DNA of 64,000 nucleotides from an uncultured Clostridia bacterium (GCA_964441745.1 CAYTYR010000006.1:1-64000), one strand, 5' to 3'; shown: positions 1,765 through 54,962, numbered from the stretch's first letter. The notes: generated by a model from the letters alone, not told the origin. Made by a program: numbers and translations.

Positions 1765-1830
1765 GCGAATTACTCGAATGGTAGCTAATTACGCGAATAT
1801 TTTAACGAATAACGACTCTGTCGTATTCGA
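1765..1830. repeat. Degenerate CGAAT-core ~9-nt intergenic repeat array
   Basis: gcgaat-tactcgaat-ggtagctaat-tacgcgaat-attttaacgaat then gtattcg; same family as 42498-42608. Confidence 0.65.
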
Positions 1831-1850
1831 CTTGTTTCTTAATAAATTGC

Positions 1851-4253
1851 TCACCTAAACAATAATTTAATCCTTTTTATTTGCTTGATCTTATACCCTG
1901 GGGCAAATATTTCCGCACAGACTTTGTCTGGCCGGAGATTTTTTTCTCCCAGGGGTAGCTGCATTTGCAGCTCTATTCTTCCACTATCTTCTCTTTTGAC
2001 CTGGACATAAGCTGGCAACGCGCCAGTCATTTGCCCGTCGACACCAATATCATAAACTGCCCCGTTAATACTGGCAGACAGTGATTTAGTGACTAGCGGC
2101 ACTTCCTGCCCCTCCATAAGATTGATGCCTGGAGGCATCTCCCGGGACAGATTTTTAATCATTGTACTTAATTCCGAGTAATTAGTCAACTCAATATCTA
2201 CGAGTTCTGCTTCACTTTCAAATCCGACCGCGAGCGGCGGGCCGAAAGACATCTTAGGATGTGGATTGAATCCCTGTGAATAAGCCATGGGGATCTTAGC
2301 CCGGCGCAAGGCGCGGTTAAACATCACCATCAGCTCCAGGTGGGAAATATACTTGGCTTCCCCTTTTTTGGAAAATTTCACCCGTATCTTCTGCATCGGC
2401 GGCAAGATGGTCCGCTGCTGTATGAGTTGTTTCAAGGTAGCGGGCAAAGCCTCTATCTTCCGGAAAACATCTATCTGGCATTCTTCCACGCCGCAGGAAG
2501 AGCACGACACATGACAATCAGGTGTGGTTTCCTGATTTTTCGCTTTCTGGTAATCGGTCCAAAGAAACTTCTGTGAAACTCCGGCGTCTATATGGCTCCA
2601 AGGCAGTATTTCCTCTTGCCCCATAATCCGGTTGGCGTAGAAACCAGGGTCAATTCCTGCTTTGGCAAAGGAGTTCTGCCAGGTTGTGTTATTAAAATGT
2701 TCATCCCACTGGTCGAAGCGGCGGCCATTTTCCACTGCATTGGCTAATACTTGTCCCAATTTGCGGTTGCCGCGCGCAAATACTGCTTCCAGGAAGCTCA
2801 GCTCCATGGTGTGCCATTTCAGCTGTACCGGCAAATGCTTTTTAAGATAATCTTTTTTAGCCCTGATCTGTTCAATGGGTTCCTGATTATGCCACTGGAA
2901 GACGCTAAAGGCCTTAGGTACGAAGGGAGCAACATTTACATTCAGGTTCAGCCCTTTGTACAGGGATTTCAGCCTTTTTATGAGCGACACGATGCCTTCA
3001 ATGTCTTCCTGGGTCTCGAAAGGCAAACCAATCATGAAATAGAGCTTGACGCCCTTCCATCCTGCTTTGTAGCCAGCCCCGATGCTATTGATAAGATCGT
3101 CATCAGTGATATCCTTGTTGATAATGTTGCGCAGGCGCATGGTCCCGGCTTCCGGGGCAAAAGTCAGGCCGCTTTTGCGCACCTGTTGGACCAGGTTAGC
3201 CAGATTGATGGAAAAATTGTCTGCCCTGAGCGAGGGCAAAGAAAAAGAGACTTTTTCCTTTTCATATTTTTCGATCAATTCTGAAAGCAGAGGATATATT
3301 TCCGGATAATCGCTCGTAGATAAAGAAGAAAATGATACTTCTTCAAAACCGCTGGTAGTGAGTATCCGGTCCAGGAGCTGTTTGACATTCTCTTTGCTGC
3401 GGATCCGCGCTGGGCGATAGATCATGGTTGCCTGGCAGAAACGGCAGCCGCGGATACAGCCGCGCATCACTTCCATAATGACCCGGTTATGGACGATATT
3501 CAGGTTTGGGATAATGAATTTATCCGGATACGGCGCCTTTTCCAGATTAGTGACGCGTTTTTTGATCTTAGCCGGCACATCACTGTATTTCGGCGTGATC
3601 TCTTTGATGGTTTGGTCAGGATTGTAGCTGACATCATACAGTGCAGGCACATAAATTCCCTGCACTTTGGCCAATTGGATAAGCTGGGACTGCTTGTCCA
3701 GGTGCCGGACTTTTTTGTAATTATCCAGGAACTCAACAATAGCTTCTTCCCCATCACCAATAATGAAGATATCGATAAAGTCAGCCAGCGGTTCAGGATT
3801 GAAGGCGCACGGTCCGCCGGCAATGACTAAAGGATATTTTTCATTCATCCGGTCAGCTGACTTGAGCGGAATGTGCGACATTTTGAGCATATTCAGCACA
3901 TTGGTGTAGCTCATCTCATACTGGAGAGTGAAACCGATAATATCAAATTCTTTGAGCGGTCGCTTGGATTCCAGGGAGAATAATGGCAGGCGGCGTAAGG
4001 TAAGCGCCTGCTCCATATCCACCCAAGGTGAATAGACCCGCTCGGCCAGGGTATCCGGATGGCTATTGATGATGTAATACAAGATTTTCAAGCCCAGGTT
4101 GGACATGCCGATTTCATAGATATCAGGGAAAGCTAACACTACCTTGACATCTGTGGTATCCCAATCCTTGTGGATAGAATTGTATTCATTATTGGTGTAT
4201 CTCGCCGGCCTCTCAACCTCCAGCAAGAAATCATCTACATTAATCTTCGTCAT
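1851..4253 (-). CDS. B12-binding radical SAM protein (TIGR03960-like) fused to radical SAM-linked DUF2344 domain (TIGR03936-like)
   Basis: AFPDIYEIGMSNLG, RGCIRGCRFC, C-terminal YISHLE..FNRALRRA..YSQGFNPHPK; usual rodA-rng context. Confidence 0.9.
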   Translation of the reverse strand: MTKINVDDFLLEVERPARYTNNEYNSIHKDWDTTDVKVVLAFPDIYEIGMSNLGLKILYYIINSHPDTLAERVYSPWVDMEQALTLRRLPLFSLESKRPLKEFDIIGFTLQYEMSYTNVLNMLKMSHIPLKSADRMNEKYPLVIAGGPCAFNPEPLADFIDIFIIGDGEEAIVEFLDNYKKVRHLDKQSQLIQLAKVQGIYVPALYDVSYNPDQTIKEITPKYSDVPAKIKKRVTNLEKAPYPDKFIIPNLNIVHNRVIMEVMRGCIRGCRFCQATMIYRPARIRSKENVKQLLDRILTTSGFEEVSFSSLSTSDYPEIYPLLSELIEKYEKEKVSFSLPSLRADNFSINLANLVQQVRKSGLTFAPEAGTMRLRNIINKDITDDDLINSIGAGYKAGWKGVKLYFMIGLPFETQEDIEGIVSLIKRLKSLYKGLNLNVNVAPFVPKAFSVFQWHNQEPIEQIRAKKDYLKKHLPVQLKWHTMELSFLEAVFARGNRKLGQVLANAVENGRRFDQWDEHFNNTTWQNSFAKAGIDPGFYANRIMGQEEILPWSHIDAGVSQKFLWTDYQKAKNQETTPDCHVSCSSCGVEECQIDVFRKIEALPATLKQLIQQRTILPPMQKIRVKFSKKGEAKYISHLELMVMFNRALRRAKIPMAYSQGFNPHPKMSFGPPLAVGFESEAELVDIELTNYSELSTMIKNLSREMPPGINLMEGQEVPLVTKSLSASINGAVYDIGVDGQMTGALPAYVQVKREDSGRIELQMQLPLGEKNLRPDKVCAEIFAPGYKIKQIKRIKLLFR

Positions 4254-4259
4254 TATTAT

Positions 4260-4779: not shown

Positions 4780-4810
4780 ACTGTCAATTTCGCAAATTGA
4801 CAGTTGGTTA
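4780..4810. repeat. REP-like palindrome, left flank of RAYT
   Basis: actgtcaattt-cgc-aaattgacagt (11-bp stem) plus tggtta; 30/31 inverted match to 5487-5517. Confidence 0.85.
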
Positions 4811-5467
4811 CTCTAAGACAAGATGCTTTATATCTGCCAGTTCTCTCTGATATCCAATATGATCAATTACGAATTCACGATACTGATCAGGTTTTAGCTC
4901 TATCAAATCTTCAAATTTACAAACTCTCTCGTTATCTATTGCCCCAACATATTCTTTATATGAAGAATGGAACCATGCTTCTGGATCTTCTACAATATGT
5001 GCAGTCACAGGATTTAAGTGTACATATCTAGTTAAATGAAGCAATTGATTATCATCATTAACTAAAACATTTTGAAATCTGCTTTCCCAAAGAGGTCCTT
5101 TCCGGCCATGTTTCTTATTAAAATATCTAGTATGACTAGTAAGAAGGTTCTTCATGAAAAAAGAAATACCTTTTTCTTTATTTTGCTTTATAACAAAATG
5201 GAGATGTGTAGGCATTAAGCAATATGCTAATATTTCTATCTCTTCTTCTCCTATAGCAGATTTTGCAATAACTTTTTGTTTTGCAATCGAATATTCACAA
5301 AATCTAGAGAAGCTGACTAATGGTTTACCCATTTTATAGAATCTCACGCATTCCATCAATCTATCATATTCTTCTTTCGTATTGAATATCACATATCCAG
5401 CTATACTCTTTGTAAATACATGATAAACACTTCCTACGGCCAGCTTATCTTTTCTCAATTTCCGCAT
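4808..5467 (-). mobile_element. REP-associated tyrosine transposase (RAYT, Y1 HUH, IS200-like fold)
   Basis: YHVFTKS, AYCLMPTHLHF (HUH), LWESRF, RYVHLNPV, SSY; AT-rich; flanked by palindromes; start uncertain (5467 or nearby). Confidence 0.88.
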
Positions 5468-5486
5468 CCTCCATCTTGCATTATTA

Positions 5487-5520
5487 TAACCAACTGTCAA
5501 TTTGCGAAATTCACAGTTGG
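5487..5520. repeat. REP-like palindrome, right flank of RAYT, overlapping trmJ stop
   Basis: taaccaactgtcaatttgcgaaattcacagttgg; inverted copy of 4780-4810. Confidence 0.85.
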
Positions 5521-6236
5521 TGATTCTTCCCATCCAAATGATATTCCATTATGCTGAATAGCTTGTGCAGGAGCTGCACATCGCGGTTTTCCAGCGGCGT
5601 CCGGCCAAATATCCGGCGGAACCGGTGCACAAATTTGGGGATGCCGCCTGCCGCCTTGAAAGTCGTTTTACCGAGCAAGGTCCCCAAATGATCGTACATT
5701 CTCTGCATATCCTTGTCCTGCGCCAAATCCCAGTCAGCTACCTTGGCTTTGGTGCTATGCAGATACAGCTCATAGCAATAGATAATGATGGACTGGGCCA
5801 GGTTCAGTGAAAAGTTCTTCGCCGGTTGGGGAATGCGCGACACAATACCGCAGTGGCGCAGTTCCATATTAGTCAAACCGGTACGCTCCCGTCCAAAAAG
5901 TATGCCAATCTTGTTCTTCTGGCCTAAGGCAATAACCTTCTCTGCAGTTTCAGAAGCGGTGAAATGATTGATACCATCCATGCGCCCTTTACTGGTCGTA
6001 CCAACAATTAGATCAAGATCTTTGATCGCTGATTTGATATCTTTGAATACTTTAGCTTTATCGACTATATCTTTGCCTTTGCGGGCCACCACATAGGTAT
6101 GTTTATTTTTGTATGGCTCAGGATTGACCAGGCGCAGGTTCTTCAGTCCCATATTCTTCATCGCCCTGGCTGCTGCCCCGATATTTTCCGGGACACGAGG
6201 TTCTACTAATATGATGTATATGTTGTTAAGTTTCAT
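5511..6236 (-). CDS. trmJ: SPOUT RNA methyltransferase, TrmJ/LasT family
   Basis: IILVEP..PENIGAAARAMKNMG, LFGRERTGLTN, SLNLAQS. Confidence 0.85.
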   Translation of the reverse strand: MKLNNIYIILVEPRVPENIGAAARAMKNMGLKNLRLVNPEPYKNKHTYVVARKGKDIVDKAKVFKDIKSAIKDLDLIVGTTSKGRMDGINHFTASETAEKVIALGQKNKIGILFGRERTGLTNMELRHCGIVSRIPQPAKNFSLNLAQSIIIYCYELYLHSTKAKVADWDLAQDKDMQRMYDHLGTLLGKTTFKAAGGIPKFVHRFRRIFGRTPLENRDVQLLHKLFSIMEYHLDGKNHQL

Positions 6237-6296
6237 AATCTGTGTAATCTCTTTCGTAATCTGTGCTGTGCCCGCCGATCTTTTTGGCGGGTAATC
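6237..6296. repeat. 9-nt TAATCTGTG array with CTGYG-CCCGCC..GGCGGG hairpin insert
   Basis: aatctgtg-taatctctttcg-taatctgtg-[ctgtgcccgccgatctttttggcggg]-taatc. Confidence 0.75.
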
Positions 6297-6299
6297 GTT

Positions 6300-7632: not shown

Positions 7633-9456
7633 TCAATCCCTTATTTCTTCCAGCGCCACTGGCTGTATTTCGGAGGCTGATTTCTTGAAATATCCTTCCA
7701 GGATACGGCGCGCTAGCGGAGCGGCTTCCACACCACCATGCCCGCCATGTTCGATAAAAACCACGACCACTACCTGCGGATTGTCTACTGGAGCCAGACA
7801 GCCGAACCAGGCATGGTCCATACCCTGAGGATTCTGGGCTGTGCCAGTCTTGCCAGCAACGCGCAATCCCTTGATATAGGCCTGACGGCCGGTACCATGA
7901 GTTACTGCTTCTTCCAGTCCTTTTTTAATCAAATGCCAGTTCTGGCGGTTGAGCTCCACCATCCCCTGTTCTTCGGGAAAGAAATCATGAAATACTTTTC
8001 CATCCGGGGAAATGATCTTTTTCACTATTTTGGGACGGTAATATGGCCCGTCATTGGCCACAGCGCTGAAAATCCCAGCCATCTGCAGCGGGGTCATCCA
8101 TAAGTACCCCTGGCCAATACACATATTCAATGTATCGCCGTCATACCAAGCTTCTTTGACCACTTTCTTTTTCCAGTTGCGATCAGGCACAATACCTTTT
8201 TTTTCTGACGGCAAGTCGATACCAGTCAGGCTGCCCAGGCCGAATTTCTTGGCATAGTTGGCGATCCTGGTCACTCCCAGCCTTAATCCCAGCTGATAAT
8301 AAAATACATCGCAGGACTGGGCCATGGCGGTGGCCAGATTAATTTTACCATGTCCGTCTCTTTTCCAGCACCTGAATACCTGGTTATAGGTACCCAGTAC
8401 CATCTCACCGGTACATTCCAGTTTCTCTTCCGGAATGATGAATCCTTCCTGCAAGCCGGCGGCAGTAGTAATGATCTTGAAACCTGAGCCAGGAGGATAC
8501 TGGGCCTGGATCGCTTTATTAAACAATGGCCGGCCGCGATTCTTGAACAAGTACTGGAATTCTCCGCGGGTAACCGGACGCAAAAAAGTATTGGGATTGA
8601 ATCCAGGCGAACTGGCCAAAGCAATAACCTCTCCGGACCGCGGATTCATGACCACTGCCGCCCCATTAATTCCCTGCAGGACATCCTGAACCAATCTTTG
8701 TACCTCACTATCGATGGTCAGTTCCAGGTCATTGCCGCTGAGCGAAGCTGTTTCCCGCAAGAGGCGCAGCTGCCTGCCGCTGGCGCTGATCTCGATCTGC
8801 TTTTCTCCATGTGTGCCTCGGAGCAGATTATCATAATAAGCTTCCAAGCCGGTTTTGCCGATCTTATCACCGATCCGGTAACCGACACTTTTTAATTCCT
8901 TGTATTCTTCCAGGGTCAACTCACCGACATAGCCAAGAACATGGCAGGCCAGGGTCCCTTCAGGATATTGGCGCTTTGGTTCAATAGAGACATTGACTCC
9001 AGGCAGTAAAGCTTTACGCTCTAAAATGGTCAAAGCCTGCTCCCTGGTGATGTCTGAGGCCACCATCACCGGATCAAGAGGCTGTAAACTGGAAAAGGTC
9101 CTGGTTTTAACTTCCTGGAGGGAAAGGTTGAGGATCCGTGCTAATTCCTGGCTGATGCGCTCTATCTCCTGCAGGGTCAGGGAGTATGAAGTGAAAGACA
9201 CAACAAAAGAAGGTATATTGATAGCCAGCAATTTCTGATGGCGGTCATAGATCTGGCCGCGGGGCGCTTTCTGGTAAAACCGCTGGAGCCTGTTCGCTTC
9301 AGCCACCTGGCGGAAATAGCGGCCATTGAGCGCCTGCATATAAAAAAGCCGTAAAAATAAAATAACAAACCCTAAGACGACGATCAAGCCTACGACGACT
9401 ACTTTTTTCTTGCGTAAAGCCAATATTTCCAGGGTTTGTTTCTGTACTAAGACCAT
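7633..9456 (-). CDS. mrdA: Penicillin-binding protein 2
   Basis: APRGQIYDR, PPGSGFK (SxxK), SCD, KTGT; mre operon. Confidence 0.95.
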   Translation of the reverse strand: MVLVQKQTLEILALRKKKVVVVGLIVVLGFVILFLRLFYMQALNGRYFRQVAEANRLQRFYQKAPRGQIYDRHQKLLAINIPSFVVSFTSYSLTLQEIERISQELARILNLSLQEVKTRTFSSLQPLDPVMVASDITREQALTILERKALLPGVNVSIEPKRQYPEGTLACHVLGYVGELTLEEYKELKSVGYRIGDKIGKTGLEAYYDNLLRGTHGEKQIEISASGRQLRLLRETASLSGNDLELTIDSEVQRLVQDVLQGINGAAVVMNPRSGEVIALASSPGFNPNTFLRPVTRGEFQYLFKNRGRPLFNKAIQAQYPPGSGFKIITTAAGLQEGFIIPEEKLECTGEMVLGTYNQVFRCWKRDGHGKINLATAMAQSCDVFYYQLGLRLGVTRIANYAKKFGLGSLTGIDLPSEKKGIVPDRNWKKKVVKEAWYDGDTLNMCIGQGYLWMTPLQMAGIFSAVANDGPYYRPKIVKKIISPDGKVFHDFFPEEQGMVELNRQNWHLIKKGLEEAVTHGTGRQAYIKGLRVAGKTGTAQNPQGMDHAWFGCLAPVDNPQVVVVVFIEHGGHGGVEAAPLARRILEGYFKKSASEIQPVALEEIRD

Positions 9457-9485
9457 TTAAATGCTACTTTCAAACTAGCTAAAAT

Positions 9486-9965
9486 TTATGTATGCGCAGG
9501 ATAGATCTTTTTTACGACCATCGCTACCAATGGCGATAAAAGAGCGTTATATCCGGCGGAAACGACGATACGGACAGCTTCATGGGACAAAAATGTATAG
9601 GAAGTAAAAAATGCCTGGGCGAAAGCGCTAAGAAAACCGCTGAAGATGGTGACCAGAAATACCAGGATCATGATCAATAAAGGGCTATTCTCTTCCAGCT
9701 TATTCTTCAGAAAGCCGCTGGCAAAACCAATAATAGCTTTCACCAGAGCTCGAACACCCAGCACGCCATAGGACAGGCAATCCTGCAAAAGCCCGCCAAT
9801 AAAACCATAGAGCTGGCCGGGCATGGATCCTTTTCTGATCGAGATCAATATAACCAGGATCAAGACAAAATCAGGCTTAGCCCCGTAAATAGCTAACCGG
9901 TTGAAGAGCGTGGTCTCCAGCAGTAAGCTGATGATAAAGGATAATAGCACGTAAAATATAGACAT
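9486..9965 (-). CDS. mreD: Rod shape-determining protein MreD
   Basis: Hydrophobic, KPDFVLILV, GLLQD; between mreC and mrdA. Confidence 0.9.
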   Translation of the reverse strand: MSIFYVLLSFIISLLLETTLFNRLAIYGAKPDFVLILVILISIRKGSMPGQLYGFIGGLLQDCLSYGVLGVRALVKAIIGFASGFLKNKLEENSPLLIMILVFLVTIFSGFLSAFAQAFFTSYTFLSHEAVRIVVSAGYNALLSPLVAMVVKKIYPAHT

Positions 9966-9980
9966 TTAAATCCTTCTAAA

Positions 9981-10102
9981 ACCGGATACCAGGAGATCAG
10001 GAAATCAGGAAGTGGATATCAGGGAATCAGGACATCAGGTTTTACCTGATAACCTGTTATCCTGGTTACCTGCATCCTGGTATTCTGGTACCCTGATAAC
10101 CT
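9981..10102. repeat. 8-nt NNATCAGG array followed by inverted CCTGATNN array
   Basis: About 6 direct then about 7 inverted units filling the mreC-mreD spacer. Confidence 0.85.
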
Positions 10103-10106
10103 ATTT

Positions 10107-10934
10107 TTATCGTTTTACAGTATTTAAAATCAAAACTTCTTCCAGCAATCCGGGATTGATCTCCGGAAGAGCTATTCCACCCTTAAAAAGCTTATTTTCT
10201 TCCTGATAATTTTCAGTAACTGTCCCCACTTTTAAACCAGGTGGGAAAATACCGCCTTTGCCACTGGTCACCAAAATATCTCCGGGCGCAATATCCGCTT
10301 CGTTGAGAAAATAGCGCAGTCGCAAACTGAAATGATTTTCTCCCTGGGCCACCCCTTCATACCTGGTACGCTCATTGAGTATCCGTAATTCGCTTTCCTG
10401 GTCAGTGAGCAGCAAGACCCGGGAAGATTGCGGCAGGACCTCAACAATACGCCCGGCTACGCCAATGGAGCCGTGCTGGTAAGCCAGCACTACCATGTTT
10501 TCAAGAACATTATCTTCCCGGCCTTTGTTCACCCAGATACTGGTATAGCAATTTTCCGGCTCGGAACCAATCACCCTGGCTAATTGGCTATAATAGGCTG
10601 ATTCTTTCTTATAAGCCAGGAGAGCTTTTAGCCGCTCATTTTCAGCCAAAGCTTCGCGGGACTGCTGGATTTCGCTCTTTAAACGGTAATTTTCTTCCTG
10701 GAGATTAAGATTTTCTTCGCGCAGGTTGACGAGAGAGAGAATGTTCTTGGCCAAACGGCTGTTGTCCTGGAGCATTTCAAAGCTGACCTTTTGGCTTGGG
10801 CTGAGAAGATAATAGAAGAAGGTGCGGACAGACTGGACCTGCTGATTGAAGGGTGAGCCGATAAGGAATAGACTCAGAGCAACCAAAAATATTAAGACGA
10901 TGCTTTCTTTATATTTAATCCACCAGTAAGACAT
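10107..10934 (-). CDS. mreC: Rod shape-determining protein MreC
   Basis: N-terminal TM, coiled coil ENERLKALL, GDILVTSG.GGIFPPG. Confidence 0.93.
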   Translation of the reverse strand: MSYWWIKYKESIVLIFLVALSLFLIGSPFNQQVQSVRTFFYYLLSPSQKVSFEMLQDNSRLAKNILSLVNLREENLNLQEENYRLKSEIQQSREALAENERLKALLAYKKESAYYSQLARVIGSEPENCYTSIWVNKGREDNVLENMVVLAYQHGSIGVAGRIVEVLPQSSRVLLLTDQESELRILNERTRYEGVAQGENHFSLRLRYFLNEADIAPGDILVTSGKGGIFPPGLKVGTVTENYQEENKLFKGGIALPEINPGLLEEVLILNTVKR

Positions 10935-10950
10935 GTCTTACCTTAGAAGG

Positions 10951-11010
10951 CACTGATGAAAACGGATTTTAACAAATGCAAACGGATTAAATATCTGTTT
11001 GAATCTGAGC
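10951..11010. repeat. Degenerate ACGGATT / AATCTG array
   Basis: aaacggattt..aaacggattaa then atctgtttgaatctg in mreB-mreC spacer. Confidence 0.55.
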
Positions 11011-11035
11011 TTTCTTTCCGTATGCATCGTGCAGT

Positions 11036-12067
11036 TTATTTGTCGCGATGCGCTTTGGACAGGCGGTCAAGTTCTTCCAGGTATTTGCCGGTGCCTTTAA
11101 CGACACAGGTCAGGGGATCTTCAGCCACATTGACCGGCAAGCCAGTCTCTTCGCTCATTAATCTGTCTATGCCGCGCAACAGTGAACTGCCGCCTGACAG
11201 GACAATACCTCTCTCAATGATATCAGCGGACAATTCCGGCGGTGTCTGTTCCAGCGTGGATTTTACCATTTCGATGATCATTCTCACAGTGTCGGAAAGT
11301 GCGCCGCGGATCTCATCGCTGACTATTTCTACGGTTTCAGGAAGGCCGGTCTTCAGGCTCCTGCCCTTCACTTCCATTGATTCTTCTTTTTCCTGGGGAT
11401 AAATAGACCCGATCCTGATCTTGACATCTTCGGCCGTGCGTTCCCCGATAGTCAGGTTATATTTGCGTTTGACATACTGGATGATAGCTTCGTCCATCGC
11501 GTCGCCGGCAACCCGCAGGGAATTACTGATGACCATCCCGCCCAGGGAGATCACCGCTACTTCCGTGGTGCCGCCGCCGATATCCACGATCATACTGCCA
11601 GCTGCTTCATGCACCGGTATATCCGCCCCGATCGCCGCAGCCATCGGCTCTTCAATAATGAATACTTCGCGCGCTCCAGCCTGCTCAGCCGCCTCTTTAA
11701 CCGCTCTTTTTTCCACTCCGGTGATACCGCTGGGCACACCGATCGCGACCCGCGGACGGATCAGGGTCCGGTCCTGGCGTACTTTGCGGATGAAGTAGCG
11801 GATCATTTCCTGGGTGATCTCAAAATCAGCGATCACCCCGTTACGCAGCGGCCTGATCGCCACTATATTGGCAGGAGTACGGCCGATCATTTTCTTGGCG
11901 TCTTCCCCTACCGCCAGTACCTCGTTAGTATTCTTATCAATAGCGACAACTGAAGGCTCACGTAAAAGGATCCCTTTGCCTTTGACATAGACCAGGGTAC
12001 TAGCTGTACCGAGATCGATGCCCATATCACTGGCCAGAAGCCCTAAAAATCTTTTAAACATAGCCAC
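11036..12067 (-). CDS. mreB: Cell shape actin MreB
   Basis: [34 protein letters not shown]. Confidence 0.97.
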
Positions 12068-12070
12068 CTT

Positions 12071-12421
12071 CTACACTAGTTTAATGATTGATTCAACAGC
12101 GCCGTCACCTTGACGTGGTCCGAGTAAGAACATCTTGGTGTAACCGCCTTTTCTTTCTTTGTACCGGGGAGCAATCACCTCAAATAATTTCTTGTTGACC
12201 TTTTTGCTCCGGATGAATTTAAATGCATCCCGGCGGCTGGCCAGGGTGCCTTTCTTGGCCAAGGTGATCATTTTTTCCGCTGCCCGCCGACATTCCTTGG
12301 CTTTGGCAGTGGTAGTTTTTATTTGTTCATACTCGAAAAGGGACTTCACCAGGTTGTTCAAGAGGTTCTTCCGGTGCCCCATATTCCTGCCTAATTTTCT
12401 GCCTACTTTACCTTGTGCCAT
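12071..12421 (-). CDS. rplQ: 50S ribosomal protein L17
   Basis: RKLGR..HR, IKTTTAKAKE, RKGGYT; after rpoA. Confidence 0.97.
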   Translation of the reverse strand: MAQGKVGRKLGRNMGHRKNLLNNLVKSLFEYEQIKTTTAKAKECRRAAEKMITLAKKGTLASRRDAFKFIRSKKVNKKLFEVIAPRYKERKGGYTKMFLLGPRQGDGAVESIIKLV

Positions 12422-12430
12422 GACTGTATG

Positions 12431-13420
12431 TTACTCCTTTTCCTGTGGAGGTAATTCCATACCCAATGATAAATTTAATTCCTTGAGTTTTTTACTGATC
12501 TCATTGAGTGATTTCTTGCCGAAATTCTTGACTTTGAGCAAGTCCTGTTCGCGTTTCTGTACCAGGTCGCCGATCAACTTGATCTTGGCTACCCGCAGGC
12601 AATTCTGCGCCCGGATAGAAAGCTCGATGATGTCCACGCTCTGGTCCAGCAGGTCGCGCAGTTTTTTGCTCTTTTCCTCTTCTGCCACTGCTGATTCTTC
12701 CACTTTTTCGCTCTTGGTTTCTTCTTCATCAAAGTTAATGAATATTTCCAGGGAGTCTTTCAGGATCTTGGCGGTGTAAGCCAAGGCATCCTCCGGCGAT
12801 ACACTGCCGTCTGTCCAGATCTCCATAATGAGCCGGTCATAGTCTGTCATTTGGCCGACACGGGCATTCTCTACGGTATAATTAACCTTGGAAACCGGGG
12901 TAAAGATAGAATCAATAGGGATGAGGCCGATATCCTGGCCCTCTTTCTTGTTTCTTTCGGCGATCACATATCCGCGGCCTTTATTCACTTCGATCATGAT
13001 CTCCAGCTTGGCGCCGGGATTAAGTGTGGCGACCGGCTGTTCAGGATTGAGCACTTCGACATTAGTATTGACTTCGATCTGCCCGGCAGTAGCGATTCCC
13101 TGTTTGTTGGCGCGCAAATATATTGTTTCGGGACCGTTAGTATACAGTTTAAACCGGACTTTTTTCAGGTTGAGGATGATCTCGGACACGTCTTCTTTGA
13201 TGCCCGGGATACTGGAGAATTCATGCAGTACGCCCTCGATCTTGATGTTCGTGATCGCGGCGCCTTCCAGTGAATTCAATAAAATTCGACGCAAACTGTT
13301 GCCGATGGTATGCCCATATCCGCGTTCAAATGGTTCAGCGACAAATTTACCGAAATTGTCAGTAGCAGTCTTCTTATCCAACTCCAACCTCTTCGGCATT
13401 ACAATGGGACTTAACTTCAT
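12431..13420 (-). CDS. rpoA: RNA polymerase subunit alpha
   Basis: EPFERGYGHTIGNSLRR, KNFGKKSL. Confidence 0.98.
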   Translation of the reverse strand: MKLSPIVMPKRLELDKKTATDNFGKFVAEPFERGYGHTIGNSLRRILLNSLEGAAITNIKIEGVLHEFSSIPGIKEDVSEIILNLKKVRFKLYTNGPETIYLRANKQGIATAGQIEVNTNVEVLNPEQPVATLNPGAKLEIMIEVNKGRGYVIAERNKKEGQDIGLIPIDSIFTPVSKVNYTVENARVGQMTDYDRLIMEIWTDGSVSPEDALAYTAKILKDSLEIFINFDEEETKSEKVEESAVAEEEKSKKLRDLLDQSVDIIELSIRAQNCLRVAKIKLIGDLVQKREQDLLKVKNFGKKSLNEISKKLKELNLSLGMELPPQEKE

Positions 13421-13462
13421 ATCTCCTCCTGTTTCTTAAACACATTAAGCTAATTTAAGCTT

Positions 13463-13518
13463 TAATCTGTGCCTGTCCTCCCGATTAGTTTTGCGAAGCA
13501 AAACTAGGGGGGATAATC
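13463..13518. repeat. 42-nt CCTG-foot hairpin inserted in TAATCTGTG|TAATC
   Basis: cctg-tcctccc-gat-tagttttgc-gaa-gcaaaacta-gggggga; sister of 19451-19492. Confidence 0.75.
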
Positions 13519-13526
13519 TATTTTAT

Positions 13527-14156
13527 TTACTTCGAATACAACTCAACGATCAGCTGTTCATTGACCGGGTACGACAATTCAGTACGATCCGGCAGTTTGG
13601 TGATAGTCCCCACCAGGGAATCCTTGTTTAGTTCGAGCCAGGAAGGTATGCCTCTTTCCACGACTACTTTCTGCCCTTCCTGCACAGCGACATTGCCTTT
13701 TCTTTTTTCACTGACCGTAACCTTATCGCCAACCTTGACGATGAAAGATGGAATATCAACTTTTTTGCTGTTGACCCGGACACCGCCATGAGCCACCAGC
13801 TGCCTGGCGCCGGTCCTGGATGTCGAAAAACCAAGACGATAAGCCACATTATCCAAACGCATTTCCAGTAACCGCAACAGATTTTCGCCGGTCAGGCCTT
13901 TCGCCTGGTCAGCTTTCTTGAAATACAGGCGGAATTGTTTTTCCATCAATCCCGAGATCCTGCGGGCTTTCTGCTTTTCCCTTAATTGGGTCTTATAATC
14001 AGACATACCGAACGAGCGTCTCTTGCCTTGCTGTCCTGGAGGGGTAGCTTTCTTATCCACTGCGCATTTAGCCGAATAACAGCGGGTTCCCTTCAAAAAT
14101 AATTTTACTCCTTCAGCACGGCACAACCTGCAAACTGCACCAATAACTCTGGCCAC
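13527..14156 (-). CDS. rpsD: 30S ribosomal protein S4 (Cys-containing type)
   Basis: CRLCRAEG.KLFLKG.RC, QLREKQK, LEMRLDN. Confidence 0.98.
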   Translation of the reverse strand: MARVIGAVCRLCRAEGVKLFLKGTRCYSAKCAVDKKATPPGQQGKRRSFGMSDYKTQLREKQKARRISGLMEKQFRLYFKKADQAKGLTGENLLRLLEMRLDNVAYRLGFSTSRTGARQLVAHGGVRVNSKKVDIPSFIVKVGDKVTVSEKRKGNVAVQEGQKVVVERGIPSWLELNKDSLVGTITKLPDRTELSYPVNEQLIVELYSK

Positions 14157-14173
14157 AAACTCCTCCTTAATAT

Positions 14174-14230
14174 TATAGCGTATAGCGTGTAGCGGATAGC
14201 GTATAGCAACTGCTATTGCTATCTGCGATT
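14174..14230. repeat. 7-nt TATAGCG array
   Basis: 14178-14206 identical (29 nt) to 49226-49254. Confidence 0.85.
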
Positions 14231-14235
14231 ATTCG

Positions 14236-14670
14236 TCAAACTCTGCGTTGTTTCGGCGGACGGCAACCATTGTGCGGGATCGGGGTAACGTCCTTGATCA
14301 TATTCACGGCCAGGCCTGCTGCCTGCAAAGCGCGGATCGCTGTTTCACGGCCTGATCCCGGGCCTTTTACCAAGACGATAACTTCCCGCATCCCCTGCTC
14401 TACCGCTTTTTTCGCTGCCGCTTCTGCCGCCATCTGGGCCGCATACGGGGTCCCTTTTCTGGAACCTTTGAATCCCTGCGAACCAGTTGAACACCAGGAT
14501 ATCACATCACCTTTCATATCGGTAATACTGATAATGGTATTGTTGAAAGTTGCCTTGATGTGCGCCACGCCTGAAGATACATTTCTCAATGCTTTTTTCT
14601 TTTTGGCTGCTGGTTTACCTGCCCCTGGCGCTTTTTTGTCTTCTTTTTTTGGTAGCTGTTGATCAGTCAT
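14236..14670 (-). CDS. rpsK: 30S ribosomal protein S11
   Basis: [37 protein letters not shown]. Confidence 0.98.
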
Positions 14671-14675
14671 TAGGC

Positions 14676-15077
14676 TTATGCTCCTTTTGCTGGTGACTTA
14701 GACTCTTCTTTTACTTTTACTGCTCCGACGGTCTTACGCATACCGCGCCGGGTACGGGCATTGGTTTTAGTGCGCTGGCCGCGTGTCGGCAGGTTCCTTT
14801 TATGCCGATAGCCGCGATACGCCCCGATTTCCACCAACCGTTTGATATTATTAGCTATATCCCGGCGCAAGGTTCCTTCGACCTTGTAATCGCGCTGGAT
14901 AATGGTCTTGAGCTTGTTAATTTCCTCTTCGGTCAGGTTCTTGACCCTGGTATCAGGACTGATTTCAGCTTCAGCCAAGATCTTCTTGGAAAGAGCCAAA
15001 CCAATACCATACAGATAACCAAGAGCAACTTCTATCCTTTTATCTTTGGGTAAGTCAACTCCTATAATTCTTGCCAT
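14676..15077 (-). CDS. rpsM: 30S ribosomal protein S13
   Basis: [22 protein letters not shown]. Confidence 0.98.
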
Positions 15078-15101
15078 CTAAATTTCTCCTCCTGGTATGG
15101 A

Positions 15102-15215
15102 TTAACCTTGTCTTTGGTTATGCCGTGGGTTAGTGCAAACTACCCTGACAATACGTTTTCTTCTGACGATTTTACATTTTTTACAGATAGGTTTAACAGA
15201 AGCGCGAACTTTCAT
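15102..15215 (-). CDS. rpmJ: 50S ribosomal protein L36 (zinc-binding type; below track cutoff)
   Basis: Translated by hand: [45 protein letters not shown]. Confidence 0.97.
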
Positions 15216-15235
15216 GAGCACATCCTCCTGAAATA

Positions 15236-15268
15236 CAAATTCTAAATTCGAATATCTAAATTCTAAAC
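15236..15268. repeat. 7-nt TCTAAAT array
   Basis: ctaaattcgaatatctaaattctaaac; near-identical 27-mers at 24186-24212 and 44826-44852. Confidence 0.8.
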
Positions 15269-15278
15269 GCTATTGTTC

Positions 15279-15497
15279 TTACTTCACCCGGAAAATGATC
15301 CGGCCGCGGGACAGGTCATATGGTGACAACTGGACTTTCACTTTATCTCCCGGCAGGATCCGGATAAAGTTCATGCGCATCTTCCCGGAAATATGCGCTA
15401 AAATCTTGTGCCCGTTCTCTAATTCCACTCTGAACATGGCGTTGGGCAAGGCTTCCAGAATTTTTCCTTCTACTTCTATAGCATCTTCTTTGGGCAC
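15279..15497 (-). CDS. infA: Translation initiation factor IF-1
   Basis: [24 protein letters not shown] start after AGGAG. Confidence 0.97.
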
Positions 15498-15514
15498 AAA
15501 CACTCCTAAACGGT

Positions 15515-15628
15515 TTTTGGGTGTTGGGCTTGGAAGTAAGTATGGTCTAAGGTCTTAGGAAGTTAGGCTTGTACCAAAGACTATAGCCTTACTTCCATAC
15601 CTACTTCTACAACCTATTACCTTAACAC
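15515..15628. repeat. Degenerate low-complexity array with inverted partner
   Basis: G/T-rich block then C/A-rich block; tggaagtaag (15531-40) pairs with cttacttcca (15588-97). Confidence 0.55.
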
Positions 15629-15633
15629 TTTTT

Positions 15634-16380: not shown

Positions 16381-16381
16381 A

Positions 16382-18778: not shown

Positions 18779-18794
18779 TGTTCAATACTCCTTA

Positions 18795-41644: not shown

Positions 41645-41701
41645 CGATTCCGCGGATTCAAGTTACGCCTGCCTGCCGTCAGGCAGGGATTACGCGGATT
41701 A
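41645..41701. repeat. 9-nt GATTACGCG array with CCTG-CCTGCC-GTCA-GGCAGG insert
   Basis: gattccgcggatt..ttacg[cctgcctgccgtcaggcagg]gattacgcggatt. Confidence 0.75.
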
Positions 41702-41704
41702 GTA

Positions 41705-42409: not shown

Positions 42410-42423
42410 TTTCTTTCCTCCTG

Positions 42424-42497
42424 GTGGTATTAGCGTCCAGCACCACTTTTTTAAGTCCCACCTTGTGAGCTATGAAAAGTGGTGCTGGACTCCCACA
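42424..42497 (-). promoter_or_regulatory. Putative L1-binding mRNA site before rplA, with long apical stem
   Basis: Minus strand GTGGGAG..GCTAATACCAC next to RBS; 16-bp perfect stem 42435-50/42475-90. Confidence 0.65.
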
Positions 42498-42608
42498 TGA
42501 ATATACGAATATCTCGAATGATAGCGAATGCCTATAATAAATATTTTCTTACCTTATATATTATATCATATTAGCGAAATTCGCTTCTCTTAATTCGCGT
42601 AATTCGGT
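42498..42608. repeat. CGAAT-core 9-nt array plus inverted ATTCG block
   Basis: tgaatatacgaatatctcgaatgatagcgaat / attagcgaaattcgc..taattcgcgtaattcgg. Confidence 0.75.
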
Positions 42609-42610
42609 AT

Positions 42611-43862: not shown

Positions 43863-43896
43863 AGATAACCCGTAATTTAATTAATATAATCCAATA

Positions 43897-43925
43897 TATA
43901 TATAGCAAACTGAACTATTTGTCAA
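43897..43925 (-). promoter_or_regulatory. Putative sigma70 promoter for secE-nusG
   Basis: TTGACA-17 nt-TATATA. Confidence 0.55.
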
Positions 43926-43942
43926 GCACTTTTTTCTTAAAA

Positions 43943-44007
43943 TGATTACACCGATTACAAAAGAAGATTACCCGCCACTAAGGCTTCGGCGGGCGCGGCA
44001 CAGATTA
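43943..44007. repeat. 9-nt GATTACACN array with CCCGCC..GGCGGG insert
   Basis: gattacaccgatta..gatta[cccgccactaaggcttcggcgggcgcgg]cacagatta. Confidence 0.75.
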
Positions 44008-44799: not shown

Positions 44800-44822
44800 A
44801 TAATCCCCCTAATTGAATTCAA

Positions 44823-44911
44823 TTTCTAAATCCGAATATCTAAATCCTAAACAAATACTAATTTCAAAATTCAAAACTGTTTAGAATTTAGGACTTAGCG
44901 CTTCGAATTTG
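44823..44911. repeat. 7-nt TCTAAAT array plus inverted block
   Basis: ctaaatccgaatatctaaatcctaaacaaat.. / tgtttagaatttaggacttagcgcttcgaattt. Confidence 0.85.
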
Positions 44912-44918
44912 TTCTTAG

Positions 44919-45221: not shown

Positions 45222-45249
45222 TGTATTTTACCCCCCTTTTTTTGAAAAA

Positions 45250-45335
45250 GCAAATGCTAAATTCCAAATTACATCGCTGCGCTTATGCTAAATTTAGCAT
45301 AAGTTCCGCAGGAACGATAGAATTTGTCATTTGGC
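45250..45335. repeat. 7-nt array with two GNA-loop inserts
   Basis: Sister of 27888-27995; overlaps the stop of the upstream ATPase gene. Confidence 0.8.
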
Positions 45336-49218: not shown

Positions 49219-49225
49219 CCTTTTG

Positions 49226-49254
49226 GCGTATAGCGTGTAGCGGATAGCGTATAG
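49226..49254. repeat. 7-nt TATAGCG array
   Basis: Identical to 14178-14206. Confidence 0.85.
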
Positions 49255-49264
49255 AAAGACAAAA

Positions 49265-50512: not shown

Positions 50513-50533
50513 GGTTATCTCCTTTTTTAAATA

Positions 50534-50597
50534 CGATTACCCAGATTAGAAAAACAGATTACCCGCCAAAGAGCGCCGGCGGGCGCAGCACCGATTA
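50534..50597. repeat. 9-nt GATTAC array with CCCGCC..GGCGGG-CGCAG insert
   Basis: gattacccagatta..gatta[cccgccaaagagcgccggcgggcgcag]caccgatta. Confidence 0.75.
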
Positions 50598-50601
50598 AAA
50601 A

Positions 50602-51667: not shown

Positions 51668-52894
51668 CTATGTTCTGTAACTGGCATTAATATCAATATA
51701 GCCATGGGTAAAATCGCAGGTATAGACAGTAGCATTAACTGGGCCCTGGTTCAGGTTAATAAGCAGTTTCAATTCTTTTCCATGCAATAACTTTTTGGCC
51801 TGGGTCTCAGAAAAACCCGGGTCGAGACCGTGGCGGCACATCTGGATCTTCTTTTTCCCGGCGGCTATGGCAATATCTATCCGCCCAGGATCAATATTTT
51901 CGCCGCTATATCCTATAGCCGCAATGATCCTGCCCCAGTTAGGGTCATTCCCAAAAATAGCTGTTTTGACCAGGCTGGATTTAGCGATGGACATGGCTAC
52001 ACTCTTAGCCGCGGCAAAATTCCTGGCCCCGGTGACCTCTACTTCCACTAATTTGGTCGCCCCTTCCCCGTCCCGGGCAATCATTTTGGTCAACTCCCTG
52101 CAGACCTGCAGTAGTTTTAGCGAAAATATTTCACTCTCCCGGCTTTGGCCGGAGATCGTTTTATGGCCAGCCTGGCTGCTGGCCAGGACCAGGACCATAT
52201 CATTAGTACTGGTATCGCCATCAACGGTTAACATATTAAAAGTAGGTTCAACACTGTTTTTTAACGCTTCTTGCAGAAAATCCTTTTCTACAGCCGCATC
52301 AGTCATAATAAAAACCAGCATGGTAGCCATATTCGGATGGATCATGCCAGAACCTTTGGCTACCCCGGTAATCGTGATTTTTTTACCGCCATTATTGAAG
52401 TTGACTGAAACGATCTTAGGAGTAGTATCAGTGGTCATGATGGACTGGCTGAAATCAGTCAGCGGATGGCGGACGGCGGACGGCAGTTTAATCTTTTTAA
52501 TAGCCTGTAAGATACCTTTTTTTAACTTTTCTAAGGGTAAGGGAACGCCGATAACGCCAGTGGAGGCAACGATCACCTGCTCTGGTTTTATCTGTAAACC
52601 GGCCGCCGCCAGTTTGGCAGATTCCCAGGCAGTACTAATTCCTTCTTTACCGGTACAGGCATTAGCATTGCCGCTATTCACAATTACGGCTTGGATCTTA
52701 CCCTTAGCAATGTGCTGTTGGCTTAAGAGGACCGGCGCTGCTTTCACCCGGTTGGTCGTAAACATGGCGGCAGCGGCGCACGGTTCCTGGGCATAGATCA
52801 GGCCAACATCAAGTTTCCCTTTTTTCCTGGCAATCCCGGCAGCCACACCGGTCAAAACAAAACCTTTTGGTATTATTAACTGGTTATTGCTCAT
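51668..52894 (-). CDS. argJ: Ornithine acetyltransferase ArgJ
   Basis: NSGNANACTG, KGSGMIHPNMATML, DGEGATK, DPNWGR. Confidence 0.97.
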   Translation of the reverse strand: MSNNQLIIPKGFVLTGVAAGIARKKGKLDVGLIYAQEPCAAAAMFTTNRVKAAPVLLSQQHIAKGKIQAVIVNSGNANACTGKEGISTAWESAKLAAAGLQIKPEQVIVASTGVIGVPLPLEKLKKGILQAIKKIKLPSAVRHPLTDFSQSIMTTDTTPKIVSVNFNNGGKKITITGVAKGSGMIHPNMATMLVFIMTDAAVEKDFLQEALKNSVEPTFNMLTVDGDTSTNDMVLVLASSQAGHKTISGQSRESEIFSLKLLQVCRELTKMIARDGEGATKLVEVEVTGARNFAAAKSVAMSIAKSSLVKTAIFGNDPNWGRIIAAIGYSGENIDPGRIDIAIAAGKKKIQMCRHGLDPGFSETQAKKLLHGKELKLLINLNQGPVNATVYTCDFTHGYIDINASYRT

Positions 52895-52926
52895 ATTAGT
52901 TAACCCCTCGGGAGCTTGTTTGCTTC

Positions 52927-52963
52927 TAATCCGCGTAATCCTAATTAATAATCTGCGTAATCA
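52927..52963. repeat. 9-nt TAATCYGCG array
   Basis: taatccgcgtaatc..taatctgcgtaatc. Confidence 0.7.
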
Positions 52964-52985
52964 AGTTTAGAAATTTTTCAAATTT

Positions 52986-54014: not shown

Positions 54015-54222
54015 GAACAACCTCCACTATTATGAGATTGTTGTAAAAAGACAACAATCTCTGTAATTTCCTTTAGAAATCAGTGTAATCAGATCGTTGA
54101 GTTTTTCTTCAACGATCTCGTTTTAATTATAGTCTAAAAATCCGTCTTTGTAAAGTTATTAATTTAGCTTGAAACATAGGCATAGATATGCTATTTTATC
54201 TATAATAAATATGGAGGCGCTG

Positions 54223-54846
54223 ATGAATACTATAAAATGGCTTTTGACTCTGGCTTTACTAACTATCTGCGCTTCAGCCTTGGCAGCAGGGAAAGACGAT
54301 TACTATCCCCTGACGCCGGGCAGCCAATGGGTTTATCAGATCACTGACCATGAACACAAGAATAAGGTGTTTGAGCAAACAGTTAGTATCGATCCACCGG
54401 AACTATACGCCAAAGCTCAATACAGCATCCTTAAACAGGAAGATAATCGGGGAATTATCAGGTCTTTTGTGCTTAAAAATGAAAAAGGCATTTTCTGGAA
54501 GAAAATTGCCGCCAGTAAATCCTTCACTCCTGAGGCAAACTCAGTTTTTACTCCGGAAATACCTATAATTTTGTTCCCTTTGGCTAAAGGCGCTGTTTGG
54601 GACTGGGAAGGCAAGCTCAAGGTCGCTTGGATCAATAAAAACATCAAAATGCATTGTGAAATCCTATCTACCAATGAAGAGCTAACCGTACCAGCAGGAA
54701 CTTTCAAATGCATTAAAATCTACATCCATCAAGTACGCGATGATGAGCCAAGTGAGGAGTATGGCTGGTATGCTCCAGGCATCGGTCAAATAAAATATGA
54801 GACCAAGCGCACCTTGAAAGTCCTTAAAAGCTACAATATAAAATAG
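54223..54846 (+). CDS. Exported beta-rich hypothetical protein
   Basis: GGAGG RBS, signal peptide, YYPL.PG..WVY, VPAGTF.C, WYAPGIG; only convincing plus-strand gene. Confidence 0.8.
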   Translation: MNTIKWLLTLALLTICASALAAGKDDYYPLTPGSQWVYQITDHEHKNKVFEQTVSIDPPELYAKAQYSILKQEDNRGIIRSFVLKNEKGIFWKKIAASKSFTPEANSVFTPEIPIILFPLAKGAVWDWEGKLKVAWINKNIKMHCEILSTNEELTVPAGTFKCIKIYIHQVRDDEPSEEYGWYAPGIGQIKYETKRTLKVLKSYNIK

Positions 54847-54962
54847 AGCGCAGATGGCATATAGCTTATGGCCAATAGCAAATGCAATTAAAAAAACCCT
54901 GTTGAATTTCATCAACAGGGTTTTATGATTTTCTATACGCCATACGCTATCCGCTATACGCC
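54847..54962. repeat. 7-nt TATAGCG array and inverted block enclosing a terminator
   Basis: gatggcatatagcttatggccaatagc / ctatacgccatacgctatccgctatacgcc. Confidence 0.75.
54890..54924. terminator. Bidirectional intrinsic terminator
   Basis: aaaaccctgttga-atttca-tcaacagggtttt between convergent genes. Confidence 0.8.

Follow-up and report, generated by a model that had tools for sequence, protein, structure and literature searches.

Why should the spacers inside the most conserved operons of a bacterium hold tandem arrays of 7- and 8-nt units? The question is raised by a stretch of 64,000 nucleotides (the window; G000:C6:1-64000) from the metagenome-assembled genome of an uncultured Clostridia bacterium (G000; 2.07 Mb in 39 contigs). 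Here 'arm' refers to one such array, and 'filled cassette' to a gene of the four-helix-bundle family TIGR02436/PF05635 with its flanking arms, the family that also occurs in the intervening sequences (IVSs) of 23S rRNA. The periodic arrays of the window are probably arms of IVS-type hairpin cassettes, complete or decayed, which carry no gene in the window.

The genome was compared with five congeners (G001-G005) and three outgroups (G006-G008); identity of the L2 protein within the genus is 89-98%. The first-pass annotation, made from the window sequence alone, had described str, S10, spc, alpha and rpoBC gene blocks. The minus strand carries all window genes but one, and the array-flanking proteins tested (S10, EF-Tu, L2, S19, L14, L24, S11, S4, RpoB and RpoC) were as expected in 10/10 cases, so the block description holds. 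Metagenome contigs were used solely for presence or absence of spacers in relatives and for identity in a second sample, and joints between arrays of the same family were excluded as likely repeat-induced.

Periodic arrays and their arms

When the window spacers were pooled and compared with shuffles, matches were in excess at lags 7 (z=7.7), 14 (z=6.0) and 21 (z=3.0), with no signal at lag 8 (z=0.8) or lag 9 (z=0.6). Among the 43 window spacers of at least 25 nt that were tested one by one, lag 7 gives p≤0.01 in 14 and p≤0.05 in 15 (the periodic spacers of Table 1), and spacer 9966-10106 holds a lag-8 array. The spacers starting at 18779 and 15504 are borderline at lag 7 (p 0.053 and 0.07, respectively) and are backed by Tandem Repeats Finder (TRF) and folding. 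The excess periodicity expected at first pass is therefore borne out for 7-nt units and for one 8-nt array, and its TCTAAAT, TATAGCG/CAGCGTA and ATCAGG sites were all recovered. Its count of 25-30 array spacers, on the other hand, is reached only if non-periodic spacers with GATTAC motifs and GC-rich hairpins are included; the strictly periodic ones number 16-18.

The excess is genome-wide. G000 contains 350 lag-7 arrays versus 23 in shuffled sequence (278 being mostly intergenic) and 365 period-7 TRF rows versus 43 in shuffles. The hairpin spacers of the window fold with z of -3.1 to -7.7 relative to shuffles.

Arms are limited in length, to about 28-31 nt overall. The mode for 116 high-scoring period-7 arrays is 4-4.5 units, only 9 of them exceeding 5 units, and period-8 arrays have a median of 3.5 units, making arms of both periods about 28-29 nt long. 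Cassette arms from other phyla are length-limited too, their unit consisting of a conserved core and about two free positions. Arm order is fixed in the well-sampled families, with ATAGCGT first in 12/12 and AAATTCT first in 5/5 cases, and four rare units were seen in both orders.

An inverted partner scoring at least 14 was found for 73/350 arrays. Of the partnerless arrays, 86 were too ambiguous to be typed. For the 54 of first-arm type, the median distance from the stop codon to the array is 1 nt, and for the 54 of second-arm type, that from the array to the following start is 13 nt. These positions fit a hairpin with one arm decayed. The arrangement of a direct block plus an inverted block, claimed for the arrays in general, thus stands under the strict test for a minority, which the solitary arrays may join by position. 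The same medians confirm the claimed location between a stop codon and the next ribosome-binding site (RBS). The claim that arrays sometimes supply the stop codon is in line with S7>fusA and S5>L15, where the stop codon falls on the boundary of the insertion and is not the one used by congeners without the array.

Filled cassettes of the four-helix-bundle gene

Filled copies were found elsewhere in the genome. G000 has seven TIGR02436/PF05635 genes, none on the contig of the window; one cassette protein is encoded at G000:C13:21128-21445. Five of these genes have an array upstream and an inverted one downstream, and the other two (L003, L005) have a downstream array only. The unit families of these arms are those of the window; TATAGCG, AAATTCT, GGAAGTA, AAAACTC and ATGGC are common to window arms and filled-cassette arms in G000, and ATCAGG with others is so in congeners. 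The five congeners yield 21 hits to the TIGR02436 family, nearly all armed, and their cassette units match empty ribosomal-block junctions in one genome or another, the 8-mer ATCAGG family included. Within a genome, gene-less elements and filled cassettes have unit variants in common.

The first-pass annotation had suggested such flanks around TIGR02436 and TIGR04256 (GxxExxY) genes of other genomes and had proposed to test whether filled copies enclose a small gene family. The former association is real and that family is TIGR02436/PF05635, with the unit families of the window. The latter was not seen, as TIGR04256 has no match in the G000 genome, and a GxxExxY cassette was rejected for G000. 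Neither gene is in the window, in agreement with the annotation.

Membership in PF05635 was found for 4/4 proteins tested. The nearest solved structure is that of a Xanthomonas protein, 2gsc, deposited with five chains. PF22296 (bAvd) matches the cassette protein weakly, below its cut-off.

The link between gene and arms extends over many phyla. A search with one protein gave 586 relatives, of which the best 80 loci were taken, 78 of them with both flanks; Flavobacterium and Niastella species are represented among the loci. Inverted arm pairing (score at least 14) occurs in 60 of the 78 loci versus 0 of 71 control flanks taken 400 nt further out. A periodic flank is present in 67/78 loci, and control flanks have arrays in 1/71 on each side. 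The same arm unit is found in 11/12 pairs at 85% or higher protein identity and in 25/106 pairs at 60-70%, compared with 4.9% by permutation. Arm unit and four-helix-bundle protein diverge together.

The genes are under purifying selection, the ratio of nonsynonymous to synonymous substitution rates (dN/dS) being 0.07-0.14 in four orthologous pairs, after L035/L036 was dropped for misalignment and L025/L028 and L023/L022 for saturated synonymous sites. Neighbours of filled cassettes are co-oriented in 124/147 cases across phyla and in 50/51 within the genus.

Some loci have peculiarities of their own. A 160-aa four-helix-bundle paralogue without arms (L037, G004:C48:19367-19693; L030, G002:C63:3344-3661) is conserved at one locus in two congeners, with a start overlapping the upstream gene and dN/dS of 0.10; it may be a domesticated copy. 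One orthologous junction carries different cassettes in different species (L005 in G000, L021 in G002, L026 in G003, L038 in G004); it lies upstream of a signal-peptide-bearing gene, and the 3' arm enters the start of the downstream reading frame. At L002 (G000:C12, upstream of 24813), higher-order repeats of arm units, about 38 nt long, run on the 5' side into a scaffold gap of 100 N, so that the arm is not fully assembled.

Turnover, distribution and other repeats

If the arrays are mobile, orthologous junctions should differ among relatives. Spacer length varies by at least 40 nt within the genus at 26 of 46 ribosomal-block junctions; the length range was used for this count because a strict classifier of spacer families missed degenerate arrays. 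In congener alignments one junction may be empty or carry a full hairpin, a single arm or a nested GC hairpin. Elements also occupy non-orthologous junctions, as the tuf>S10 composite of G000 matches the L15>secY element of G004 at 91/110 aligned positions, shuffles scoring at most 14. The first 14 nt of the inner core of this composite occur seven times in the genome. In contigs of related populations, seven array spacers are replaced by 10-39 other letters. In the outgroups G006-G008, which represent a single evolutionary contrast, there is no TIGR02436 hit, median spacers are 12-17.5 nt, and arrays occur at 1/31, 0/26 and 1/19 junctions, respectively.

The proposal of a mobile system is upheld to the extent that arrays come and go within the genus and are not fixed across relatives. 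The elements are DNA insertions that fill the short permissive stretch between stop codon and RBS, and their gain, loss and overwriting all take place inside a single genus.

The targeting of highly expressed operons, also proposed at first pass, is not supported. Because gene boundaries outside the window come from a custom open reading frame (ORF) caller, the following genome-wide counts are approximate. By these calls G000 has 1763 co-directional, 43 divergent and 42 convergent junctions, of which arrays occupy 202, 1 and 7, respectively. Ribosomal-block junctions are occupied in 9/45 cases versus 193/1718 of the other co-directional junctions, an insignificant enrichment (Fisher p=0.09).

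Arrays also separate tRNA genes, and 31 arrays lie well inside ORFs, about 20 of them being clear heptamer arrays read in frame. Permissive sites are therefore a simpler account than aimed insertion. The tRNA clusters at G000:C10:37854-38118 and G000:C14:18572-18850 have heptamer hairpins in alternation with the genes.

In-frame arrays were followed among relatives. For the window gene 51668-52894, 4/4 full-length congener orthologues keep a 28-nt array of four units at the same codons with other units; from one orthologue to another, a unit of such in-gene arrays changes by 1-3 substitutions. In G003, the unit variant of the orthologue has no further occurrence except in the filled cassette, in its 3' arm, the broader family having 3 to 29 matches per genome. 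A gene resembling that of valyl-tRNA synthetase (ValRS; G000:C2:53211-56048, L130) has array-coded inserts at two loop sites, both with the array-plus-GC-hairpin composite of the S12>S7 spacer. Inserts are found in the genus members with a readable site, congeners having other array-coded peptides, and in none of three more distant relatives. The pattern of the in-frame arrays argues for exchange between loci and not for purely local drift. In addition, two inverted 8-mer arrays of AGTGGTAN type lie 331 nt apart at G000:C8:19799-20204, apparently in frame, in an ORF of about 4400 codons (8946-22289).

Two further motifs had been taken for array families, a 9-nt GATTACRCN family and a CGAAT-core family. 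Neither passes the lag test. Periodicity is absent (per-spacer p 0.06-1.0) from all nine GATTACRCN sites and from the CGAAT site at 1765, and the one at 42498 gives a lag-5 signal only (p=0.013). CGAAT is not enriched in the genome (323 versus 359 in shuffles). GATTAC is abundant in genome spacers, with 328 occurrences versus 108 ± 9 in shuffles, and same-strand pairs 8-16 nt apart are found in 27 spacers versus 0.16 in shuffles, preferred spacings being 9 and 22 nt. It usually adjoins a GC-rich mini-hairpin, making a composite element. GATTAC is a separate dispersed motif linked to small GC hairpins, and not a 9-nt array family.

The small GC-rich hairpins themselves are found in 146/1052 spacers versus 8 in shuffles and are present or absent among congeners. 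Alignment of G002 with G000 places one within the 5' arm of S8>L6. At the L24>L5 junction of G001 (L017), a 44-nt GC-rich hairpin has an apparent flanking duplication of 5-6 nt (AACTAC), unlike the arrays; other such hairpins do not.

Table 1 Repeat elements of the window and their state in relatives. TRF, lag test (p; p7 at lag 7) and fold z are relative to shuffles where a score is given.
Position	Strand	Element	Evidence	Lag-7 periodic spacer	Relatives and other copies
9966-10106	-	Hairpin of 8-mers (ATCAGGNN); blocks at 9990-10039 (direct) and 10044-10102 (inverted)	TRF period 8; lag-8 17/21, p=0; fold z=-4.7		Unit also in a filled cassette of G003 (L029)
14157-14235	-	S11>S4, TATAGCG array (14174-14207) and weak inverted block	lag-7 18/21, p=0	yes	G005 nearly identical; G003 same family; G002 different sequence; G006 none
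15223-15278	-	infA>L36, second-arm-type AGAATTT array (15237-15267) adjoining RBS	p=0	yes	
15504-15633	-	map>infA, GGAAGTA/GGTCTAA hairpin	fold z=-3.5		Arms shared with filled cassette L007; congeners with other families or nothing; 15 letters instead in one relative's contig
18779-18911	-	S5>L15, TCTAAATAC (14-nt) hairpin, arms 18795-18833 and 18875-18907	TRF		Present in G003; 3' arm only in G002; absent in G004, G001, G006
20466-20596	-	S8>L6, AAATTCT-family hairpin	p7=0.003	yes	Absent in G004, G001; G002 same element with 20-nt GC mini-hairpin nested in 5' arm
22098-22180	-	L14>L24, first-arm-type TATAGCG array (22146-22174, + strand)	p=0	yes	Same family in G003, G005; other families in G002, G001; GC hairpin in G004
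24183-24213	-	L22>S3, short second-arm-type array	p=0	yes	Common to G002; absent in G004, G001; larger nested element instead in G003, G005
24882-25002	-	L2>S19, ATGGC/ATAGC hairpin	p=0, fold z=-4.0	yes	G005, G001 related; G002, G003 different families; G006 spacer 12 nt
27865-28002	-	tuf>S10, composite AAATTCT hairpin, inner core ATCGTTCCTGCGGAACTTAT		yes	27-nt spacer in G004 and G002
31315-31370	-	S7>fusA, short GAAATTT array beginning at stop codon	p7=0.007	yes	20 nt in G004 and G002, stop TAG in place of TAA
31842-31946	-	S12>S7, CAGCGTA/CAGCGGT arms and nested CCCGCC...GGCGGG hairpin	p7=0.007, z=-3.7	yes	28 nt in G004; composite also in frame within two other genes
32325-32489	-	rpoC>S12, ATTAGAA hairpin	p=0	yes	35-37 nt in G004 and G002
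36558-36637	-	rpoB>rpoC, second-arm-type CGCTGAT array adjoining RBS	p=0	yes	Common to G004; absent in G002
44800-44918	-	AAATCCT/AAATTCT hairpin	p7=0.017, z=-3.1	yes	GGAAGTA-family hairpin in G004
45222-45326	-	Composite AAATTCT element, second copy	p7=0.003, z=-4.3	yes	Common to G004; 3' arm only in G002
49219-49264	-	TATAGCG array filling 46-nt junction	17/21, p=0	yes	
52454-52490	-	Four-unit in-frame heptamer array inside the 408-aa gene 51668-52894			
54847-54970	.	Convergent junction, ATGGC/ATAGC arms around terminator-like hairpin	p=0, fold z=-7.7	yes	
43863-44004	-	GATTAC cluster and CCCGCC...GGCGGG hairpin	not periodic by lag test		
6237-6299, 13421-13526, 26771-26834, 41645-41704, 50513-50601		Further GATTAC/GC-hairpin copies			
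52895-52985, 54021-54168		GTAATC motifs without GC-rich hairpin			
42410-42610	-	CGAAT direct block and ATTCG inverted block, irregular 9-13 nt spacing	fold z=-5.3; no 7-9 nt periodicity		
1751-1850		Site similar to the CGAAT element at 42410-42610			

Mechanism, alternatives and related systems

In the full element as we conceive it, a PF05635/TIGR02436 gene follows a 5' arm of four to five 7- or 8-nt units (about 30 nt) and precedes an inverted 3' arm. The gene-less forms of the window comprise complete hairpins with a short loop, hairpins with a nested tiny GC hairpin, and single arms left after deletion. The elements would be co-transcribed with the host operon, as the co-orientation of filled cassettes with their neighbours suggests, and the arms would pair in RNA as an imperfect stem of about 30 bp. 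By analogy with the rRNA IVSs of other bacteria, RNase III, whose gene is present in G000, may cut this stem, and such cutting would make the insert tolerable within an operon. As for how copies arise, the best fit would be gene conversion between arrays or templated copying, in which filled cassettes serve as sources.

Several observations weigh against cassette arms as the origin of the arrays. Under the strict test 277/350 arrays have no inverted partner, and AT-rich families fold hardly better than shuffles (z -0.5 to -2.1). At the free positions of mirrored units, complementarity is at chance (60 versus 54.4 expected of 142, a test of low power with an assumed pairing register), so that perfect double-stranded RNA is not being selected. 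The abundant CAGCGG/CAGCGT family (about 24 TRF rows) has no filled copy in G000, and G006 and G008 each have one array though no TIGR02436 gene was found there. Some arrays are stably inherited, such as that of S11>S4 in G000 and G005. Alignment of 14 junctions, empty against occupied, showed no target-site duplication for arrays. Reverse transcriptase (PF00078) has no match in G000, a genome 98% complete, and the copies of Y1-transposase-like genes examined are flanked by GACCCC-type repeats or none and not by heptamer arrays. The 23S rRNA gene, the known site of IVSs, was not found in the G000 assembly.

The Y1 (IS200/RAYT-type) transposase-like genes (PF01797) number eight in G000. Matches include window positions 4808-5533 on the minus strand, G000:C22:25815-26810, C1:182315-183262, C1:186341-187126 and C8:5396-6343. 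Long copies (about 315-330 aa) have their own tandem GACCCC-type repeats as flanks, and these genes may mobilise another repeat family.

The cassette reading can be carried further, to a proposal that is speculative and that we ourselves hold to be somewhat unlikely. Four-helix-bundle proteins would read their own repeat units in a sequence-specific way and, with replication or repair functions of the host, copy them elsewhere. Gene and arms would then form a mobile element of a new kind, one that does without transposase, integrase and reverse transcriptase, overwriting arrays and colonising stop-codon/RBS junctions, tRNA spacers and protein loops by templated conversion.

The proteins could instead read their units on mRNA, next to stop codons and RBSs. 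Arrays would then be binding sites of post-transcriptional regulators, each ring-forming four-helix-bundle protein tuning the translation or decay of neighbouring cistrons, and would be kept as useful to the host. Such a role would account for a unit core with about two free positions that is kept across phyla along with the protein, for the limited arm length, for second arms ending a median of 13 nt before the start codon, and for purifying selection on the proteins. It is also in line with the five chains of 2gsc, which is cited as a homopentamer in the consulted part of PMC4990558, and with regulatory roles proposed for such repeats in Geobacter (PMC2700814) and Beggiatoaceae (PMC4679880), as far as the consulted parts of these papers go. 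Nevertheless, we judge it unlikely. Among close species, a junction in an essential operon may be empty, hold an array or hold one of another family, and a conserved regulon does not behave in this way. Arrays also occur in frame in coding loops, and the CAGCGG/CAGCGT family has no cognate protein gene in G000. The idea that a pentamer would bind five units was rejected, since 7-mer arms of 4-4.5 units (five cores) and 8-mer arms of 3.5 units are equally long in nt, as a limit on length would have it and a rule of one unit per subunit would not. In our reading the elements are selfish or close to neutral and no device of the ribosomal operons.

Another possibility, quite improbable in our view, is that nothing moves. 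The arrays would be ordinary simple-sequence repeats made by local slippage and concerted evolution, and the link to the gene would reflect shared permissive sites. Finding no transposase, target-site duplication or reverse transcriptase is what such repeats predict, and some arrays are indeed stably inherited. Differences of 1-3 substitutions per unit between orthologous in-gene arrays could be obtained by concerted drift, and heptamer repeats are over-represented in many bacteria according to the consulted part of PMC4692102. Slippage, however, would give a decaying tail of unit counts, whereas the counts peak at 4-4.5 and are cut off above 5. Nor would it be expected to fix arm order in each family, to place a non-repetitive inner core at seven loci and at non-orthologous junctions of two genomes, or to let arm units travel with a protein across phyla while control flanks 400 nt away have almost no arrays (1/71 each side). 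A genome-specific unit variant common only to one filled-cassette arm and one in-gene array also argues against it. Finally, artefacts of assembly or binning, suggested by the 39-contig assembly, by contigs of relatives that often end at arrays and by metagenome contigs that jump between arrays of the same family, are hardly conceivable as the source, because contigs from a second sample of the same study are identical over 18487-23965 and 24551-25261, that is, across four array spacers, orthologous arrays recur in independently assembled congeners, and in-frame arrays keep reading frames open.

Among known systems, cassettes of the IVS type come closest. In Coxiella burnetii, the 23S rRNA IVS with its S23p ORF forms a 28-bp RNase III stem, cut at the first of several heptameric direct repeats whose number varies between strains (PMC4990558, consulted part). 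The likeness lies in the PF05635/TIGR02436 gene family, inverted arms of about 28-30 nt, heptameric direct repeats and gene-less or decaying forms, as described in that part of the paper. Of these features, the window elements have inverted arms able to pair over about 28-30 bp, share unit family and order with filled cassettes, and have no PF05635/TIGR02436 gene. They differ in location, lying in mRNA junctions or a coding region, and elsewhere in tRNA spacers, instead of helix 25 or 45 of 23S rRNA. They also differ in having many unit families per genome and gene-less forms in excess of filled ones by about 50 to 1 (350 arrays, 7 genes). RNase III excision has been shown for IVSs; for the arrays it would follow by analogy.

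Cyanobacterial short tandemly repeated repetitive (STRR) elements are tandem repeats of 7 or 8 nt that have had no explanation. Similar repeats have been described as four or five tandem units in opposite-strand pairs between and within genes of Geobacter metallireducens (PMC2700814), as GGGAATC repeats in Xanthomonas and heptamers in Nostoc (PMC4692102), and as TAACTGA repeats in Beggiatoaceae, Cyanobacteria and Bacteroidetes (PMC4679880), each in the consulted part of the source. Judged from these parts, such orphan repeats resemble the arrays in sets of two to six units, inverted pairs, sites just upstream of starts or in genes, and differences between close relatives. The window arrays likewise are tandem, 7-8 nt in unit and 2-6 in copies, with an intergenic excess and inverted pairs. 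The difference is that here unit families are tied to a filled cassette in G000 or a congener. The terms 'intervening sequence', 'S23' and 'four helix' do not occur in the main text of PMC2700814, PMC4692102 and PMC4679880. In the literature search the term TIGR02436 was not found, and among the papers checked that name the protein family, none links heptamer repeats to it in the parts consulted. A gene of this family has been reported wedged into cas operons or rRNA insertions, with heptamers unmentioned in the parts consulted.

Repetitive extragenic palindromes (REPs) and bacterial interspersed mosaic elements (BIMEs) with REP-associated tyrosine transposases (RAYTs), MITEs (miniature inverted-repeat transposable elements) and Rickettsia palindromic elements are small, palindromic, non-coding intergenic repeats, those of Rickettsia being found in frame in genes as well. 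The arrays differ from them in having no observed target-site duplication or cognate transposase and in arms that are tandem arrays, not unique inverted repeats. A MITE was rejected on the absence of target-site duplication at the 14 aligned junctions, with no related transposase identified, and a REP/RAYT system on the flanks of the Y1-type genes examined. Rejected too was a diversity-generating retroelement, as G000 has no PF00078 match and no template/variable repeat pair; the likeness to its Avd accessory proteins is that of a related four-helix-bundle fold family (the weak PF22296 match). Small dispersed repeats, reportedly nested in cyanobacterial heptamer arrays (Elhai and colleagues, 2008), are alike in being hairpins of 20-45 nt inserted precisely into such arrays, and differ in sequence and phylum.

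For decades, reports of tandem 7- and 8-base repeats between and within genes of cyanobacteria, Xanthomonas, Geobacter and Beggiatoaceae have left them unexplained, and the gene of rRNA IVSs has no known function. In this genus the two form a single system, whose density is very high even in the most conserved operons. The intermediates are all visible, as empty junctions, full hairpins, lone arms, hairpins with another nested inside, cassettes with their gene, and copies read in frame. Should the proteins really read and copy their own units, 23S rRNA IVSs, cyanobacterial STRR and the orphan heptamer repeats of Xanthomonas, Geobacter and Beggiatoaceae would be unified. In practice the arrays break assemblies, shift predicted gene starts and alter protein loops between close strains. 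How the elements move, whether the proteins read the repeats and how operons tolerate the inserts have become testable questions.

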